DNA of 64,000 nucleotides from Longimicrobiales bacterium (GTDB lineage: Bacteria > Gemmatimonadota > Gemmatimonadetes > Longimicrobiales > Gaopeijiaceae). The translations under genes were made by a program, and so were the position numbers. Each line of letters begins with the position of its first letter. Position 1 is the first letter of the stretch. This document shows positions 18,193 to 32,364 of this stretch, piece by piece. The DNA is taken from positions 1 through 64,000 of the forward strand of contig CBDDCX010000006.1 in the NCBI GenBank assembly GCA_965226375.1. The letters run 5' to 3'. The notes below the pieces were generated by a model that searched no databases, was not told the DNA's origin, and saw only the letters and a list, made by a program, of their open reading frames with translations.

Positions 18193-22652
<4,460 letters not shown>

Positions 22653-22856
22653 CACCGGATCGGCCAGCGCGGATTGGAACATACCGATCTCAGGCCCGGC
22701 CGCGCGGCCTCGGTTGATCACTCGGAACTCGTCCACGGACTTCTCATACGGTCGGATGGATTCCCGTTCAGAAAGCGGGAGTGAATGAGGGAATCACGTC
22801 TGATCAACAAGCCGTAAGTCTTGTATTATCAATTATTTATAAAGATTCCGCAGTCG

Positions 22857-22870
22857 TCAGCGCCATGATG
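22857..22870 (+). repeat. attR core TCAGCGCCATGATG
   Basis: Exact repeat of 12464-12477. Confidence 0.9.
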
Positions 22871-23146
22871 ACCGGCGAGCGCGTGGGGGTCGGCCACGAC
22901 CCGAGCCGGGGGGCCGCCTACGTCGAGGGCTGGGTCGCGGCCCTCGAGGAAGATCCCCGGGAGATCCGCCGAGCCGCGGCCGACGCACAGAAGATCTCCG
23001 ACTTCGTGCTGGCCCGAAGCCGCGAGCGCGCGGCCGAGCGGGAGCCCACTCCGGTGGCCGCCACCCGCGCTCCCGACCCGCAGCACGCCGGAAGGCCGGA
23101 GCTCCCGCTGCCGGTCCCCAAACGGAGCTCCGGCCCCAGCCGCTGA
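22857..23146 (+). pseudogene. ardC: ArdC 3' part
   Basis: SAMMTGER..AAYVEGWVAALEEDPREIRRAAADAQKISDFV continues EELRAEISAMM in frame. Confidence 0.85.
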
Positions 23147-23169
23147 GGCCAAGGACGGAGCCCTAGGAG

Positions 23170-24057
23170 ATGTTCGACCGCACGATCGGATCGGACCCGC
23201 GTCCCGCCGCGCCGCAAAGCCGCGCTAGCTACCGCATGCGGGACGGCCATCGCCGAGAATACGACGCGAGCCGGGACCGCGGGTCCACCTCCTTCAGAGA
23301 ACGGTGCCGTGGGGCGCTCGCCGACATCGGCATCTACGGCGCCGTCTCCGTCCGCGATCTCGCCGAGGCTCACTTCGGCGGCCATCCCTACACCACGCGG
23401 CGGGCGGTGAACGCCTGGATACGCGAAGGGCTCGCCCAAGAAACCCGAGCCACTGGACCCAACGGCAACCCGTTCAAGATGCTGACTCTCACGCGGAAAG
23501 GCGTGGCCGAGGCCCGGAAGCTGGCCGCCGAGCGGGGAATCGATCCCGGCCAGGAGATCGGGTTCGCACGTACCCGGCCCGCCGAGGCCGCGCACGACAC
23601 CGCCATCTATCGGGCCTGCCGCCAGGAGCACCAACGCCTGATCGAGCAGGGGGCCACCGTCCGCCGTGTGCGTCTCGACGGCGAGCTCAAGAGCGCCGTA
23701 GCACGCAAGAGCGAGTCCGCGCGGGCGAAAGACGGCCGGCGGGCCGCGGACGCCGAACGGCACCGGGCCGCCGGAGCGATCGGCCTCCCCGTCGACGCGC
23801 AGGGACGCGTGCTCTACCCGGATGCGCAGATCGAGTACACCGACTCCGAGGGGCGCACCGGACGCGTCAACATCGAGGTCGCATCGGGCAACTACCGGGC
23901 TCGCTCCATACGTGCCAAGGTGGCCGCCGGGTTCCGGATGCACGCCAACGGACCGGCCGCCGCGCGCCTGCTCCGCTCGCTCGGCGTGGGCGACGGCGGA
24001 GATCGCTCCTCCCTGCGAGGGCCGGCCGACCGGGATCCGGCCGCGCTCGAGCTCTAG
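23170..24057 (+). CDS. Hypothetical protein, wHTH + PD-(D/E)xK-like (possible replication-relaxation family)
   Basis: SD AGGAG; LTLTRKG, AHDTAIY, YPDAQIEY, NIEVASGNY. Confidence 0.55.
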   Translation: MFDRTIGSDPRPAAPQSRASYRMRDGHRREYDASRDRGSTSFRERCRGALADIGIYGAVSVRDLAEAHFGGHPYTTRRAVNAWIREGLAQETRATGPNGNPFKMLTLTRKGVAEARKLAAERGIDPGQEIGFARTRPAEAAHDTAIYRACRQEHQRLIEQGATVRRVRLDGELKSAVARKSESARAKDGRRAADAERHRAAGAIGLPVDAQGRVLYPDAQIEYTDSEGRTGRVNIEVASGNYRARSIRAKVAAGFRMHANGPAAARLLRSLGVGDGGDRSSLRGPADRDPAALEL

Positions 24058-24066
24058 CCCGCCCCC

Positions 24067-24381
24067 ATGCAACCCTGGAAGATCAGCGCGGGGCTGACCG
24101 CCGCACTCTCCGGATCGGCCCTTCTCCTCGCCGGGGACCGGCTCGAGTACCTCGCGCCGTTCTGGGATGTGCTCCTGGCCGACTACGGCCTCGAGGTCGC
24201 GTTGCACGTGGCCCTGGCGATAGCAACTGTCGCGGCCGCCATCTACGCCGTCGCCCGCGCCGCGGGACTCGCAGACCTCGGACAGCGCGTCGATCTCGCC
24301 GAACGCTCCGTCCGGCGAGGCGAGGGAGATCCCGATCTCGCCGACGCCCTCAGGAGAGATGCCGACGGCGAGTGGGACTGA
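24067..24381 (+). CDS. Small membrane protein
   Basis: Two hydrophobic segments; follows the previous gene by 9 bp. Confidence 0.6.
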   Translation: MQPWKISAGLTAALSGSALLLAGDRLEYLAPFWDVLLADYGLEVALHVALAIATVAAAIYAVARAAGLADLGQRVDLAERSVRRGEGDPDLADALRRDADGEWD

Positions 24382-24392
24382 GCGGCGGCGTC

Positions 24393-24518
24393 CTAGGCCT
24401 CGCCCGGGGTCGCGATGCGGTAGCCGACCCCGTGCTCGGTGAAGATGTAGGTCGGACTGGCGGCGTCTTCGCCGAGCTTGGCCCGGAGCTTCTTGACGAT
24501 GATGCGGACGCGGTCGGT
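24393..24518 (-). pseudogene. OmpR-type winged-helix C-terminal fragment
   Basis: Manual translation VRIIVKKLRAKLGEDAASPTYIFTEHGVGYRI; likely the tail of the gene starting at 27433. Confidence 0.7.
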
Positions 24519-24861: not shown

Positions 24862-25248
24862 CTATACCCACACGCAGATACGACAAAGCCTCCCGGAATG
24901 CCCCTGGGTGAGCTTTGGGCAGATAACTGTGTGAGCGGGATTGCCGTCCTTCGGGTCGAGGCGAACGATGTACTCCTGTGGGCCACCCAGGCCCCGAACG
25001 TCTCCCGCGGTGAACGCGACGAGCCGAAAGCTGTCGTGACCAGCAAGTGCCGAATCGCGATCGATTAGCGATGCCAGGAAGACCGAAAGCTCCCCGGACT
25101 GGTCACGGAAGTTCCCTGAACTCGGGTGGACGCCAGCCGGATGCTGGCCGGGCGGTATTCTACGCCACAGGATCGCATCGTTGGGAATGTTTGGGTCATC
25201 ACCAAGGTCACGACACGCCTGACCGCGTCTAGGTTGATCCCGGGCCAC
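24862..25248 (-). CDS. Hypothetical protein, candidate ADP-ribosyltransferase-fold toxin
   Basis: LWRRI..PSSGNF..LSVF..D....AH pattern; third gene of a compact operon; function is inference. Confidence 0.55.
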   Translation of the reverse strand: MARDQPRRGQACRDLGDDPNIPNDAILWRRIPPGQHPAGVHPSSGNFRDQSGELSVFLASLIDRDSALAGHDSFRLVAFTAGDVRGLGGPQEYIVRLDPKDGNPAHTVICPKLTQGHSGRLCRICVWV

Positions 25249-25266
25249 CTCGGAGAAGCCGGCCTG

Positions 25267-25731
25267 CTATCCGCCGATGATCCAGTTCAGGTGGCCCAGC
25301 AGCTCGGGTGTACTCTCGACGACACCGTCGTTGAACCGCTCTCCATGTGAGACACGGAGGTACTCGACCGGCAGGCCTCCATCATCGATCAGGCCGAACT
25401 CAATCTCCAACTCACGGACTCCACAGTGCCATTCAAACTGGACCCCACCTCCGCTCACTGCAGTGATGTGGGGAGGTAGCAGAAAAGGAGCGAAGTACGA
25501 GTCTGTGGCTCTTACGAACGACTCTGCGACTTCGAGCAGGTCGTGACTCGGGGGCACACTGCCGTAGCTATCCCAGTCCTCCTCCAGCTCACGGAGGCGG
25601 TTAAGGCCAACGAGAGCGTCGATGAGCGGATCGCCATGATCGAGCACGATCAGATCCCCACGAGTCGACGTTGGAGCCAGAATGTCCGCGTCGATGTATC
25701 CTGGATAATGGATCGTGTCGGTCGCTCTCAC
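25267..25731 (-). CDS. Hypothetical protein
   Basis: LEEDWDSYGSVPP..GGVQFEW..ELEIEF; starts 2 bp after the upstream stop. Confidence 0.7.
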   Translation of the reverse strand: MRATDTIHYPGYIDADILAPTSTRGDLIVLDHGDPLIDALVGLNRLRELEEDWDSYGSVPPSHDLLEVAESFVRATDSYFAPFLLPPHITAVSGGGVQFEWHCGVRELEIEFGLIDDGGLPVEYLRVSHGERFNDGVVESTPELLGHLNWIIGG

Positions 25732-25733
25732 TG

Positions 25734-26555
25734 TCAGGACGTTCTCTTCCAGATTTTATGCATCTTTTCCGTAGTTAGATTTGTGAAGCTGCGCACGATC
25801 GTCGCTCTCGCCCGGTCCATCCAAACCATCACGTCGGAAGGGTCCGAAGAGGCGGGCTGGCCCTTCACTGTCAATTGGAACCGCAGTATCTCAAGACCGC
25901 CCTCTCGACGAACCGCCGGTGTAAGTGTTACGTCAAGCATGTCAGTATCAACCTGAAACCGCGCCTGAATACTGATCGCTTTGGGAGTTGGTAGCACCTC
26001 CGGCGTCCCGGCCCACCAGCGGACTACACCGCGTAGATCCTCCGCAGACTTCCATTCACGGCCTCTCTCGAAGTGGTTTACGTAAGTCGCCTCGCATTCG
26101 ACCACTTCCGAGACGCCGATTTCCTCGCCCGAGAGGAACTCCCTAAACCTATCCCATTCAGCTTCAAACGCCGGGCGGATAGACTGTTCGTACCTGGGGT
26201 ACTCCTCTTCTGGCGTGCCCTTACGCCAATTGTAGAAGAACCCGTCATGCTGCACCTGAATCAGGCGGCCTCCTCCCTCCTCCAGGAACCAGCAACGAGC
26301 CTCGGGCGTGGTTGTGAGTTGCAATGTGATGCCCTCTAAAGTGCCCTTCTTCGGTCCGGGCTCCATTAGCGGCGGATGGACCTCGAACTTCGGGTAGTCA
26401 GCCCTGATGGCATCCCAGTATAGGCCGAAGTGCGGGATGTCCCACTTGAGCTTCGGAAAACGGACTCCGAAGACGGTCTCGAAGACCGGCGGGGCATCGA
26501 ACTCAGGCAGTCCAGACTGCCCCTGGGCGGAACGATCTTGGGTCTCGCTCACCAT
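25734..26555 (-). CDS. TIGR04255-like protein
   Basis: FDAPPVFETVFGVRF, RCWF, LIQVQ, YPRY, YVNHF, SFTNLTTEKMHKIW; SD AAGGAG. Confidence 0.75.
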   Translation of the reverse strand: MVSETQDRSAQGQSGLPEFDAPPVFETVFGVRFPKLKWDIPHFGLYWDAIRADYPKFEVHPPLMEPGPKKGTLEGITLQLTTTPEARCWFLEEGGGRLIQVQHDGFFYNWRKGTPEEEYPRYEQSIRPAFEAEWDRFREFLSGEEIGVSEVVECEATYVNHFERGREWKSAEDLRGVVRWWAGTPEVLPTPKAISIQARFQVDTDMLDVTLTPAVRREGGLEILRFQLTVKGQPASSDPSDVMVWMDRARATIVRSFTNLTTEKMHKIWKRTS

Positions 26556-26890: not shown

Positions 26891-27433
26891 TCACTTGCCC
26901 TTAACCGCCTCGAGGTTGAGCGACACCGCGCGGCCGGTTCCGGAGTCGAAGACGACGACTCCGACCGGCGAGGTCTCGACGAGCGCCTCGAGGTCGGCCC
27001 GCGCCCGCTCGACGTCGCGGTGCGTCCTCGCGTTCGCGATCGCCGTCGCCGCCTGCGACGCGAAAAGCACCAGGATCTCCTCGTCCTCCGCGGTGAATGC
27101 CTCCCCGTCCTTCTTGTCACCGAGGACAAAGTTGCCGAGATGCTCGCCCCGGTGGTGCTCGAAGAGCCGCGGCCCGTCGGGCCATGCCACCATCTTCCGG
27201 CGCTGCTCCGGGGGAAGGCCGGAGATGACGAAATCCCGGACCCGTCCTCGCTCGTCGAACGTCGTCATCACGCCGACGCGGGCGCCGGTGAGCGCACGGG
27301 CGCTCTCGACGGCCTCTTCAAGGACAGTGGCCAGATCGAGGCTCTGGCTGATGCGGAGGATCGCCGCGCGCAGCCGGGATGTGGGGTCGCCCGCGGGCCC
27401 GCTCCTGGGCCCGGCCGGATCCGGGTCGTTCAA
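26891..27433 (-). pseudogene. GAF/PAS sensor-regulator N-terminal fragment
   Basis: ISQSLDLATVL, FTAEDEEILVLFASQAATAIANAR, LVETSPVGVVVFD; ends abruptly. Confidence 0.75.
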
Positions 27434-27593
27434 TGCTCCACTCCCGCCGGGGGTGAGGCGGCCCGCCTGCGCCGGACCGCCGGAGAGTGGAGGATAGCGA
27501 TAGCCGGTTTCGGGGGGCGAGTCACGGGTGGGACATGACGATTGCCCAATTGCATCACGATCAGATCACAAGAAATCGTGCAGATTTCTGGGT

Positions 27594-27623
27594 AGCTCCC
27601 GATAATTGTAGTTATCGGGAGCT
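27594..27623 (+). promoter_or_regulatory. lox-like recombination site 1
   Basis: AGCTCCCGATAA-TTGTAG-TTATCGGGAGCT. Confidence 0.8.
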
Positions 27624-27660
27624 GAAGATATGTGCGTATGTCGTTGTTTTGGAGTCACTT

Positions 27661-28647
27661 ATGCCAATTCATGCCTCGGGAGACGTGTCCGGCCATCCCG
27701 GCCTCACCACCCAACGGCCACAAATCGGCAGGCGCCTCGACGCCTGCCTGGAGGAAGCCGACGGTACCCTCAGCGGACATACCATCCGGACGCTGAGAGC
27801 GGATCTGGCGGGGTTCACGGCGTGGTGCGCCGAGCGGGGGCTCTCTCCGCTCCCCGCGAGAGCGGGCACGGTCGTGTCGTACATTGAGGCGATGACACCC
27901 GTCCGTGCGTCGGCCACCGTTCGGCGCTACGTCTGGAGCATCGCCACCGTGCACAAGGTAGCCGGGGAACGGAGCCCGCTCGAGGACGCCGCAGTGCAGC
28001 GGGCGCTCACGCGGATGCACCGGAAAAATGGGATCCGGCAGAGCCAGGTGCGGGGGCTCACCTGGACCCTCGTCCGGCGCCTGTTGGCTGCCGCAGAAGA
28101 CCGGCTGATCGATGTGCGGAATCGCGCGATGCTGGCCGTCGCCTACGATGCCATGCTCCGCCGCTCAGAGCTGGTCGCGCTGCAAGTCTTTGACATGAAG
28201 AGATATAGGGACGGGTCGGCCTCGCTCCTCGTGCGGCGCGCGAAGAACGATCCGGAAGGTGGGGGCGCGATGCTCTACCTCCACCGGGACACAGTGAAGC
28301 TGGTGCGGGCGTGGCTCGGCGCGAGCGGAATCGACGCCGGGCGGCTCTTCCGCTCGGTCGCCAAAGAGGGCACCGTGGGCGCGAGGCTCGACGAGAGCCA
28401 GGTGCCGCGCATCTACCGGGCGATGGCCGAGCGCGCCGGACTCCCGGCGGAGGTGGTACGGCGGATCTCCGGGCACAGCCCCCGGGTGGGAGCGGCTCAG
28501 GACATGATCGCCTCGGGGATCGGGATCCCGGCCATCATGCAGGCCGGGCGCTGGAGGAGCGCCTCGATGGTGCAGCGCTACGGCGAGCGGCTCCTCGCGC
28601 AGCGGAACGGCGCCGCACAGCTCGCGCGGCTTCAGAAGCGCGAATAG
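27661..28647 (+). CDS. Cre/TnpS-like tyrosine recombinase
   Basis: RNRAML..LRRSEL, RAKND, GHSPRVG, GRW, VQRY; SD GGAG before ATG 27661. Confidence 0.88.
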   Translation: MPIHASGDVSGHPGLTTQRPQIGRRLDACLEEADGTLSGHTIRTLRADLAGFTAWCAERGLSPLPARAGTVVSYIEAMTPVRASATVRRYVWSIATVHKVAGERSPLEDAAVQRALTRMHRKNGIRQSQVRGLTWTLVRRLLAAAEDRLIDVRNRAMLAVAYDAMLRRSELVALQVFDMKRYRDGSASLLVRRAKNDPEGGGAMLYLHRDTVKLVRAWLGASGIDAGRLFRSVAKEGTVGARLDESQVPRIYRAMAERAGLPAEVVRRISGHSPRVGAAQDMIASGIGIPAIMQAGRWRSASMVQRYGERLLAQRNGAAQLARLQKRE

Positions 28648-28706
28648 CGCCGAAGACCCCGCAGGGGTTGCCTCGGCGCGCTCCGGTCACATAGTTAGTG
28701 GCGGGT

Positions 28707-28736
28707 AGCTCCCGATAACTACAATTATCGGGAGCT
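28707..28736 (-). promoter_or_regulatory. lox-like recombination site 2 (inverted)
   Basis: AGCTCCCGATAA-CTACAA-TTATCGGGAGCT; exact reverse complement of site 1. Confidence 0.8.
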
Positions 28737-28987
28737 TGAAAATCTTGACGGAGGCGTGTCGAATGTCGGAAGTACCGAAACGGGTTGTCTGTGTGCGGCT
28801 GGCGATGTCCGAATCACTCTCTCGGAGCCGTCGCCCTACGGCGGAGGGCCGTTGGCTTCACCGCGCTGGCGTGGCGCGGCGGCGAGCGGGTTCCTGCCGC
28901 CGGATCGCGTTCAGTCACGTGACGAGAGACGACGACGCCCCGTGGGACCAGACAGCAGGGCCGTCGTCCGGATGCCTCGGCGGCGGG

Positions 28988-30245
28988 ATGGCGCGCGACA
29001 CGCCGGGCGCGGACGGAAGGTGTCCGCGTGCGCTGCGCGGCCTGGCCATGGGACTGGTGACGCTCTCCGGCCTGGTTGTCGCCGTGCCGACCGAAGCCCA
29101 GACCGTGACCGTGCCCAGTGCGCCGAGAAATTTCCTGGCAGTGGCCGGTGACGGCCTGGTGCGGCTGTCATGGAGTAGTCCGAGCGATGCAGATGGGGTA
29201 GTTGGCACCACGCTCACCTACCAGTACCGCTACGCCCCCGGCGCTGCGGTGCCCGCCGAAACGGCCTGGAGCACGCCCGAGCGTTATCCGGTAGGTGGAT
29301 CTGTGATCCTGGCCGGTTTCGCCAACGGCACGGCCTATGCGTTCGAGGTACGGGCGGTGAACACGGTCGGCGCCGGCCCGGCAGCGTCGGCCACGGCGAC
29401 GCCGCAGCGCGCGGCCTGCCCCGCGCCTGCCCTCGGTGGCCGGCGCCAGATCTGGCGCGCCGCATTGACGATAGGTGCAGCGCCAGAAATATCCTATTTG
29501 AAGCCAGGAGAAGTTTTGTTCTTCGGTTACGACGCATCCGCGGCGGGAACCCTGAGTGATACCGGGTTCCGGGTCGGCGCCACCAGGTATTCGATCGGAC
29601 AGCTGTTCGTGTACAACCCGCGCTCTACGTCCAGTTTTCCTGGGGACTTGAGATTTTCTATTGTCAACCGGGACCTGAGCCCCGCGCACCAGGCGGTGCT
29701 ACGCCTGCATGTGTGCGACACGGCCTACGATTTCAACACCGAGTATGTTTTCACACCGGAGAACTTCTACATCGAGAACAACCAATACCCGTATCTCTGG
29801 CGACACGGGAGAGGGGATCGCAGTGGTCTATATCCTGATGAACTGGACTGGGGCCTGCTCGTCGACCGCACGGTGTACCTCAGCCTGCCGGCCAACACTC
29901 CGGCCACCGGCAATCCCACCGTCACCGGCACGGTGCGGGTGGGGCAGGTCCTGACCGCGGCCACGGGCACCATCGCCGACGCGGACGGGCTGACGCTGGC
30001 CGATGCGGGAGAGGCGGGGTTTGGCTACACCTAAGCTGAAGGTGCGGGTGTCGCTCACGGACGACTTGGACAGTGCGGAGGCGAGAGAGAGCGACGGCAC
30101 CGTCGCCAACAGCGTCCCCACGGCGTCGGACGGCCGGGTGACCGCGATTGAGAACCAGGACTACACGTTCACCGCGGCCGACTTCAACTACGCCGACGCC
30201 GACGGCGACCCGCTCGCGAGCGTGACGCGCCCGCGCGCGTCCTGA
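28988..30245 (+). pseudogene. Secreted fibronectin type III / cadherin-like surface protein, truncated
   Basis: Signal-like segment; PSAPRNF..LSWSSP..YAFEVRAVN..G.G; stop at 30034; further repeat fragment FNYADADGD. Confidence 0.65.
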
Positions 30246-30425
30246 GGTTACCTCGAGTGCAGGCCCGCACCGGGCTGGCGCGGAGCACGATCTATGTGCG
30301 GGTGGCCGACGGGAGCTTTTCCCCAACCGATCCGGCTAGGCGCGCGCGCCGTCGGCTGGATCGAGTCCGAAGTGGATGCGTGGATCCGAGAACAGATCGC
30401 CGCGAGCCGTGGCAACGCGAAGTGA
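30242..30425 (+). pseudogene. AlpA-family excisionase/regulator, frameshifted
   Basis: LRLPRVQARTGLARSTIY..GSF / PQPIRLGARAVGWIESEVDAWI; slip in TTTTCCCC near 30320; no start codon. Confidence 0.8.
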
Positions 30426-30542: not shown

Positions 30543-30640
30543 TGGATTCCCGTTCAGAAAGAGGGGTGTAATAAGGGGAGCAGAGTGGGTTAAGTAGTCT
30601 TAAGTATATTATCCATAATAAGTTATAACGGATTCGGCGT
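30543..30640. mobile_element. Right end of outer integrative element
   Basis: TGGATTCCCGTTCAGAAAG plus AT-rich tract and GATTC, as at 22757-22850; abuts a truncated permease gene. Confidence 0.7.
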
Positions 30641-31100
30641 GGATCCGGCACAACCGGTCGACGACGTCCGCACCATGGAGCAATACAAATACGATAGCTC
30701 GTCGTTCAGCCTCGCCCTCCTGACTTTGGCGATGACCTTCGCTGTGTTCGCGCTGGTCATGGCGGGCCTGGGGATCTACGGAGTGATGTCGTATATGGTC
30801 TCGGAGAGAAAGGCCGAGATCAGCCTGCGGATGGCACTCGGTGCCCAGCGAGGGGACGTGCTGCGCATGGTGCTTTACAAGGGCGGGACGCTGATGACCG
30901 CCGGAGCCGCGGTCGGAATCGTCGGAGCGCTCCTGCTGAGTCCCGTCCTGGAGAGCATGGTGGTCGGCATAAGCCCCCAAGATCCGGTGACGTTCATCGG
31001 TGTGCCGGCGGCCCTGATGGTGGTGGCGCTGGTGGCCAACTACATCCCGGCGTTCCGCGCCACTCGGGTCGATCCCATGTCAGCCATGCGGAAAAAGTAA
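30639..31100 (+). pseudogene. ABC permease (FtsX/ADOP) C-terminal fragment
   Basis: GIYGVMSYMVSER..EISLRMALGA..PAFRATRVDP; 5' part missing. Confidence 0.8.
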
Positions 31101-31146
31101 GGCCTCGGGGGACCGACCCACCGGCAGGCATCGGAAAGCGGCGGGC

Positions 31147-32364
31147 TCAGCGCCGGGCGAGCGCCTGGTCGAGTAGTTCGGATAACTCGGCTTCACCGAG
31201 CGGGCCGCGGAGAATAGCCAGACCATCCAGGAGTTCTCGAACGACCTGGTTCCACCCGTCCGGGAGGCGTGCGACGGGGATCCCCTCAGCGTCCCTCGAT
31301 GTGTCTCGCTCCGCCAGGGTGGGTACGAAGCGCAACTCCACGACGCGCCCGTCCGGGAGCTCCTGGATGATCGTCACCGCAGAATCGAAACCCTCGGCGC
31401 CTCCCCCGAACCGGACGTCCCGGATCGAGAGGCCTGGGATGACGAAGGAGCTCGTGCGCCCGGTGACTGACATTTCATTGAGACTCATCGCGTTGGCATT
31501 GTCCGCGAACAGCTCATCCTGATTGGACTTCGTGACATCCTCCGCCAGGACGGAGGCAGCCACGCCTCTGGCCACTCCCGTGACAGCTCGGTTGTCCATG
31601 ACGCTGGTCGGGTCGACCGCCTCGCGCCTTCTCCGCTCCAGGGGAGCGGCTGGTCCGGCCGCTTGGGGCGCTGCCTCGGACGCTCGCTGCTGATCCAACC
31701 GGAGAGCGCCGCCGACCGCGTCGCGCCGTCCGGCCTCAACCTCATCGGCGGACTCCATGGGGACCGCGGCGGCCGGCGCGTCGGTCGGCGCTATTACCAC
31801 GTCGGAGAGTGCCGCACGGGCAATGGGTGGCACCGCCTCGGCGTCGAGGTCCTGCGACTGCACGGGTGACGCAACCTGGGCGGTAAAGTCGCCCTGATCG
31901 GCCTGCCTGAGTTCGGGCTCGGCCTGGAACGGATTCAGGGCCTCGTCAGCTCGCGACGGAACGCCCTCCTGGGTTCGCACCGCGTCGAGCGCAGGCGCGG
32001 TTGCCAGTTCGCTGCCGGGTCCGGTCAGATCATGGGCTATCCATCCGGCACCGAGGGAAATCACCACCGTGGCGGCCATGCGGAGCACCCTGAACTTCGA
32101 CGTCCCGCCGGACGGGCGGGTCGACTCTGCCTCGTCCGCCCTTGCCACCAGTTCTTCGAACGGTGCCAGGTCCATGGGAGCCTCGGCCGTAGCGGCCAGA
32201 ATTTCCGACGCGACCATACGGAGCTCTCGCTCTTCATCCAAGGATCGAGCGCACGCCTCGCACTCGTCCAGGTGCTGTCGCACGCGATTGGCCTCGCCCT
32301 CGGGATAGGCGCCCAGGGCGCCGTCGAGGTAGGCGTGGATATCTCCCTTACCGACGTGCGACAT
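31147..32364 (-). CDS. zf-HC2 anti-sigma factor
   Basis: AYLDG..HLDECEAC, single TM segment; overlaps the sigma gene. Confidence 0.8.
   Translation of the reverse strand: MSHVGKGDIHAYLDGALGAYPEGEANRVRQHLDECEACARSLDEERELRMVASEILAATAEAPMDLAPFEELVARADEAESTRPSGGTSKFRVLRMAATVVISLGAGWIAHDLTGPGSELATAPALDAVRTQEGVPSRADEALNPFQAEPELRQADQGDFTAQVASPVQSQDLDAEAVPPIARAALSDVVIAPTDAPAAAVPMESADEVEAGRRDAVGGALRLDQQRASEAAPQAAGPAAPLERRRREAVDPTSVMDNRAVTGVARGVAASVLAEDVTKSNQDELFADNANAMSLNEMSVTGRTSSFVIPGLSIRDVRFGGGAEGFDSAVTIIQELPDGRVVELRFVPTLAERDTSRDAEGIPVARLPDGWNQVVRELLDGLAILRGPLGEAELSELLDQALARR

Follow-up and report, generated by a model that had tools for sequence, protein, structure and literature searches.

Cre acts natively in dimer resolution, and the H segment of Salmonella measures close to 1 kb. 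In the Hin system of that segment (hixL, hixR, fljBA promoter), the recombinase gene and a promoter both lie inside the invertible DNA (excerpts of PMC5903667 and PMC9368917). The fimS switch of FimB/FimE and the Salmonella T1 switch instead keep the recombinase outside a segment of 269 to 314 bp, with 9-bp repeats that are not lox-like palindromes (excerpt of PMC11294581). Here we describe a locus in a 64,000-nucleotide stretch of a Longimicrobiales genome (the window, by which we mean the whole stretch analyzed) whose best reading is a Hin-like phase-variation switch that employs a Cre-type tyrosine recombinase and may receive feedback from the regulator. We found no description of this system in a search of listings and passages from mostly open-access papers; members may sit in supplementary material such as the candidate table of PMC10250229 or the inverton lists of PMC11602134, and the words "sponge" and "Gemmatimonad" do not occur in the PMC11602134 main text.

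The putative invertible segment of the window spans about 1.1 kb, with a recombinase gene and a predicted outward promoter between two inverted sites, and it is placed between a surface-protein (FN3) gene and a divergent GAF-PAS-kinase-receiver-winged-helix regulator that survives here as a remnant (Table 1). The sequence-only reading had described two 30-bp sites with perfect 12-bp arms and reverse-complement spacers, each preceded by GGGT, around an intact recombinase with the R-K-HxxR-W-Y residue set, and all of this was borne out: the sites are 100% complementary over 30 nt, and the recombinase frame is uninterrupted. Shuffled sequence gave 0 matches to the paired sites, and neither a pattern search nor a profile scan found a third site across the 4.2-Mb genome. 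Perfect symmetry in the window ends at 30 bp, with partial extension beyond this length in the common orientation of the family. Cre structures are the best solved-structure match of the recombinase, which contains the PF00589 domain and residues R167, K195, H272, R275, W298, and Y307, all invariant across 17 aligned homologues. GGAG stands at 27651 to 27654 ahead of its ATG. In 40 of 43 loci, a loose TAnnn[T/C] motif recurs 12 to 14 nt inside the left site (counted without a control set). No second recombinase of this type was found in the window's genome.

Table 1. Features of the cassette and its flanks, in positions of the 64,000-nucleotide window
Feature	Position	Strand	Basis
C-terminal regulator remnant, aa 735-774, severed by deletion and other genes	24399..24518	-	Alignment
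Regulator remnant, 180 aa, 38-codon internal deletion	26891..27433	-	Domain search and alignment to relatives
Predicted regulator promoter, GTGACT ... TATCCT	27491..27525	-	Flank comparison
Predicted regulator-dependent promoter outside the cassette, aimed inward, TCAC-N7-TCAC-N11-CAGATT	27554..27586	+	Motif comparison
Left lox-like site, 12-bp arm, spacer TTGTAG, 12-bp arm; regulator side here	27594..27623	.	Site, shuffle, and genome scans
Candidate -10 of the recombinase's own promoter	27637..27642	+	13 nt inside left site; inferred
Cre-like tyrosine recombinase, 328 aa, intact	27661..28647	+	PF00589; Cre E 7e-26; catalytic residues
Predicted outward promoter within the cassette, TTGCCT-N16-CATAGT, facing the FN3 gene here	28668..28695	+	Sigma70 scoring
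Right lox-like site, spacer CTACAA, exact reverse complement of left	28707..28736	.	Site, shuffle, and genome scans
FN3 surface-protein gene, inferred switch target	28763..30034	+	GGAGG 28750, ATG 28763; domain search

We analyzed 183 loci, window included, that are distinct at the recombinase end (the filter merged L014 with L013); these loci are kin, and counts among them overstate independence. Both sites were found in all 43 loci at ≥66% identity, a figure partly built in because the arm profile was trained on paired loci, and in 40 of 58 loci at 53 to 65%. Below 53% identity, 0 of 39 loci have both sites, 18 have a single upstream site, and none was detected in 21 (full-length matches with enough flank in all three ranges). 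The profile used to find sites leaves out the spacer. Spacers, of 25 types, are exact reverse complements in 83 of 85 two-site loci and direct in none, compared with a mean of 7.1 and a maximum of 19 matches when partners are permuted. Paired arms mismatch at 13.8% of positions and paired spacers at 0.4%; the spacers thus match while the arms drift, which strand exchange requires and an operator does not. The proposed check of whether homologues are bracketed in the same way came out positive, with paired inverted sites in relatives and spacers that covary.

Clade A, as we call the close group, forms a single lineage in the tree (monophyletic; support, 0.997), and its named records are MAGs from Longimicrobiales, "Ca. 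Palauibacter," Vicinamibacterales, Latescibacterota, and Gammaproteobacteria; records of the wider clade B add Poriferihabitaceae, Alphaproteobacteria, and Chloroflexi. The MAG names presumably point to sponge hosts. A search of 151 genomes from the family to which the window belongs gave a recombinase match in 10, and single genomes have up to 6. One subfamily (L020, L022, L023, L024, and L028) has 7-bp spacers and GGTTGATAA arms, and its close relative L025 has a 6-bp spacer, the length having changed at both sites together. Insertions enlarge the cassettes of L029, L117, L119, L129, and L060 to 2.6 to 4.3 kb, and their spacers still match.

In clade A loci, one conserved flank leads to the hybrid regulator and the other to a variable gene. 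The regulator flank lies downstream of the recombinase in 42 of 48 loci (OFF), and 4 to 6 of the 48, window included, show the rarer arrangement, in which the predicted promoter faces the surface gene (ON). The regulator flank is upstream of the recombinase in the window, L005, L060, and, judged by its flanks, L159, while L034 and L035 keep only the right half of the cassette followed by a target-type flank. The suggestion that the window's current state is a recombination product holds, since the great majority of close loci are in the opposite orientation, and it is in that orientation that the GGGT/ACCC extension of the arms forms. Symmetry past the arms is greater in OFF than in ON, by 27 versus 8 of 43 loci.

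L060 and L009 represent one locus in two genomes, with surface genes 98% and regulator flanks 98.6% identical and their sides swapped. Flipping L009 in silico within its spacers gives a junction that agrees with that of L005 base for base (54 of 54) and also reproduces the outer arm and flank of the right junction of L060. L005 begins its record and could be an assembly artifact; the other end of its cassette was not found at the far end of that record. The L060 recombinase is split by a 1,433-bp Mutator-family IS and that of L009 is frameshifted, so that L060/L009, the best two-junction pair, is frozen. Flanks are also swapped between clade B paralogues within single records (L115 and L149 versus L131; L150 versus L147 and L148) and between L159 and L032. 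Crossovers map to the spacer, and outer arms remain with their flanks. For four of 24 public runs, the analysis covered contigs, which end at the 30-bp repeat or close to it, and no joint linking the two sites is listed among them; such contigs cannot show a mixture of orientations, and both orientations are known from separate assemblies. A contig of X2 links 27376 to 28641 across opposite strands, the configuration expected of a relative in the other state; at 88% likeness it may come from another organism, and it was left out of the count. Together, the two orientations and the covarying spacers among homologues support the self-inverting cassette that the sequence-only reading had proposed, and comparison of these sequences makes inversion at the sites highly probable.

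The sites might instead be mere recombinase operators, or relics. An autoregulatory operator would fit the distant relatives, with their single upstream site or none detected, but an operator has no need of the near-universal match between the spacers of the two sites despite arm drift, and flipped copies exist; we find this reading barely credible. The presence of the cassette in several phyla and in many copies calls for some means of spread, as would be expected of a mobile element with inverted terminal sites whose orientations reflect insertion either way and not switching. This explanation is highly improbable given that crossovers fall in the spacer and leave outer arms on their own flanks, that the close clade always has the same regulator flank attached, and that the sites are inverted, an arrangement between which Cre-type chemistry cannot excise.

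Recombination between loci could also be the main job of the enzyme, through swapping of surface genes among regulator modules or rearrangement of the chromosome, with local flips as a by-product. Genomes with multiple recombinase matches would suit such a role, as would L061 and L070, whose spacers do not match within a locus and whose genome contains TTGTAG sites as well, and L013 and L014, which share one contig, the same cassette, and the same regulator flank and have different surface genes, a hint of gene swapping. However, single-copy genomes, including the window's, retain both sites intact, spacers match within loci and often differ between the loci of one record (L004 versus L009; L008, L012, and L031), and the predicted outward promoter is conserved, which leaves this role very unlikely as the main one. 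We retain local inversion of a cassette with a predicted promoter as the preferred reading.

The predicted outward promoter lies just inside the right site. We scored the last 70 nt inside this site with a hand-written sigma70 matrix, and outward scores beat inward scores in 41 of 43 close loci and shuffles in 39 of 43 (outward, 7.5; inward, 1.0; shuffled, 1.9). A strict consensus scan for promoters and terminators called 0 promoters in 27380 to 29000, the element at 28668 to 28695 not being listed, and no terminator. In clade B, 20 of 42 loci have a TTG(A/C)nn hexamer 3 to 5 nt inward of the right site, as do 12 of 43 in clade A; none has one at the left site. A spacer such as CTACAA or CTACAG, plus the next T, could serve as its -10. 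The left spacer was considered as a -35 element and rejected, as its spacing is not conserved.

In 25 of 43 loci, the target side has a ribosome binding site and start codon no more than 60 nt from the site, versus 4 of 43 on the regulator side. A domain scan of 24 far-side ORFs identified FN3, Calx-beta, cadherin, LRR, SWM, or CARDB domains in 21; the other three are two hexapeptide proteins and one oxygenase-like protein (L030, unpaired). The surface-protein gene appears to be mostly promoterless. In the window, an alternative ATG of the FN3 gene at 28988 precedes a signal-peptide-like stretch (judged by eye). The far-side genes of L017, L018, and L157 encode about 250 aa, and those of L017 and L018 are hexapeptide-repeat acyltransferase-like proteins, not adhesins. 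We put the probability that the locus is a self-contained invertible promoter cassette acting as a promoter switch for the surface gene at roughly 0.8.

The conserved neighbor is a GAF-PAS-HisKA-HATPase-REC-Trans_reg_C hybrid regulator of about 775 aa, with a full-length ORF in 28 of 42 OFF loci and none in the sequence examined in the other 14. TCAC repeats with an 11-bp period and a -10 lie in its flank, and 34 of 45 regulator flanks, versus 1 of 43 target flanks, have CAC-N11-TAnnnT directed toward the cassette; the window's inward -10 is CAGATT, degenerate at the first base relative to the TAnnnT of its relatives. PhoB-type repeats are positioned over the -35. The layout here is of the OmpR/PhoB type, with direct repeats of 11-bp period upstream of a -10 and a Trans_reg_C winged-helix regulator, and PhoB itself recognizes a pattern of 11-nucleotide direct-repeat units (excerpt of PMC4415409). 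In the predicted promoter of the regulator, the spacing from GTGACT to TATCCT is 23 nt in the window versus 17 to 19 nt in 33 of 43 close loci.

The regulator family occurs without the cassette at 67 of 75 loci. CAC-N11-TAnnnT points away from the regulator in 14 of these 67, whereas the opposite strand and shuffled sequence each gave 0. Of 21 divergent ORFs examined at such regulators, hand-picked mostly as the longest, 10 encode Ig, FN3, cadherin, Calx-beta, or LRR domains. The motif and the divergent surface genes at these regulators suggest an older unit of regulator, divergent promoter, and surface gene, and the cassette appears to have inserted between the regulator-controlled promoter and its target gene. 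One-protein GAF-PAS-kinase-receiver-winged-helix regulators of this kind (L282 to L360) are multicopy in many phyla of these MAGs and often divergent from giant surface proteins. At L108 and L109 (clade B), receiver/winged-helix regulator matches lie 3′ of the right site, a possible parallel link. We also considered whether regulator loss locks the switch ON. An intact regulator is present in 0 of 4 ON loci versus 28 of 42 OFF loci (P = 0.04 on a table of 0/3 versus 28/41), which is a hint at most because L005 and L060 are one lineage and the L060 recombinase is IS-split; the 14 OFF loci without a full-length regulator indicate that its loss does not force ON.

The window's copy is in the ON orientation within a decaying locus, with an intact recombinase, perfect sites, and both flanking genes broken, a feature that the sequence-only reading had not noted. 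Contigs of X1 and X4 span the point of regulator truncation, and the genome, which is 90% complete, yielded no intact regulator copy. The FN3 gene is cut short at 30034, and another piece of it lies in a different frame at 30003 to 30245. Control of a full product by this copy of the switch has probably been lost. Three minus-strand genes occupy 24862 to 26555 inside the broken regulator gene, one of them TIGR04255-like (E 4.7e-17, a match that may be below the family cutoff), and a mobile/defense region with a type I restriction subunit R, an MPTase-PolyVal fragment, and ORFs of unknown function adjoins the locus at 19503 to 24400. Directly after the truncated FN3 gene, 30239 to 30425 holds a frameshifted AlpA-family gene, typical of an island edge. 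The stretch at 30638 to 31500, an ABC-permease end, is 99.8% identical to a second copy on the same contig (G000:C6:136954-137816) over the 863 bp compared. Further regulator/flank fragments lie at G000:C6:414438-414624 and C7:28638-29072, without a recombinase or site.

In the mechanism that we propose, the recombinase would bind the two palindromic sites and exchange strands within their 6-bp spacers, and since the spacers are inverted, the 1.1-kb segment with the recombinase gene and outward promoter would flip. Judged by the motifs, the outward promoter would face the hybrid regulator in OFF, the common state, leaving the surface gene without a nearby promoter, and would face the surface-protein gene in ON, the window's state. 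The regulator-box promoter would read the recombinase in sense and then the target in ON and would read the recombinase antisense in OFF, so that an active regulator would favor a flip back to OFF. Such feedback, for which we allow an even chance or slightly less, would bias the switch toward OFF, as the assemblies are biased, and read-through into the target in OFF is possible.

More tentatively, host-associated marine bacteria of different phyla may have in this family a genetic memory circuit gated by a signal, a reading we hold somewhat short of even. In such a circuit, the recombinase would flip its own gene relative to a promoter under the adjacent one-protein sensor-kinase-regulator, one signal would drive sense transcription of the recombinase in ON and antisense in OFF, and the cassette promoter would feed the surface-protein gene or the regulator by turns. 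Uncultured bacteria would, on this evidence, phase-vary their large FN3, cadherin, Calx-beta, and LRR surface proteins; these are usually seen as static gene content, and a switch makes their role testable through long-read orientation counts. The Cre-like recombinases of the family are compact and have predicted targets of 30 bp. As a new pairing of recombinase and target, they come with no fewer than 25 spacer variants and several arm variants found in nature, and the putative feedback would be a natural design for DNA memory.

Among described systems, the fimS and T1 switches resemble the cassette in that a tyrosine recombinase flips the promoter of a surface structure with a bias to OFF (excerpt of PMC11294581), and the cassette differs from the FimB/FimE type, in which the recombinase lies outside a segment of about 300 bp with 9-bp repeats. 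The TnpS/TnpT-rst resolvase of Tn4651 likewise has a tyrosine recombinase and an upstream site between divergent genes (excerpt of PMC7157771). The sequence-only reading had remarked that similar sites may serve TnpS-like resolvases. Kinship to TnpS/TnpT as a system is not supported: the cassette has a second, inverted site downstream, neither a TnpT helper nor a Tn3 transposase beside it, and a hybrid kinase-regulator as its divergent gene. A tblastn search of a pWW0 stretch gave no match. Sites of the Rhizobium etli IntA/attA system share the half-site core CCGATAA with those of the cassette, and the 7-bp attA spacer matches the subfamily of L020, L022 to L024, and L028 (excerpt of PMC4928290). 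The likeness lies in the sites, with attA-type sites scoring 15 to 24 bits on the family arm profile in 10 of 14 loci and the protein search giving one 27% partial match; unlike the cassette enzyme, IntA joins two plasmids via sites on different replicons (same excerpt). Cre/loxP and Cre-type systems have in common with the cassette the six catalytic residues, palindromic sites, and an asymmetric spacer adjoining the gene (excerpt of PMC10250229). Unlike loxP (13+8+13; 34 bp), the perfect arms here give 12+6+12 or 11+8+11, and two inverted sites enclose the gene and predicted promoter, giving inversion. The recombinase gene lies inside the segment, as in the Hin system. A promoter within the Hin segment is directed at a surface-antigen operon in one of its two states, and the predicted promoter of the cassette may play a similar part; Hin belongs to the serine recombinases and needs Fis, HU, and an enhancer (excerpts of PMC5903667 and PMC9368917), whereas the cassette enzyme, with its PF00589 domain and Cre matches, is a Cre-like tyrosine recombinase and so falls outside the serine-recombinase invertons of the Hin type. 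Also unlike Hin, the cassette has palindromic sites, a dedicated hybrid kinase-regulator attached to it, and the possibility of several copies per genome.
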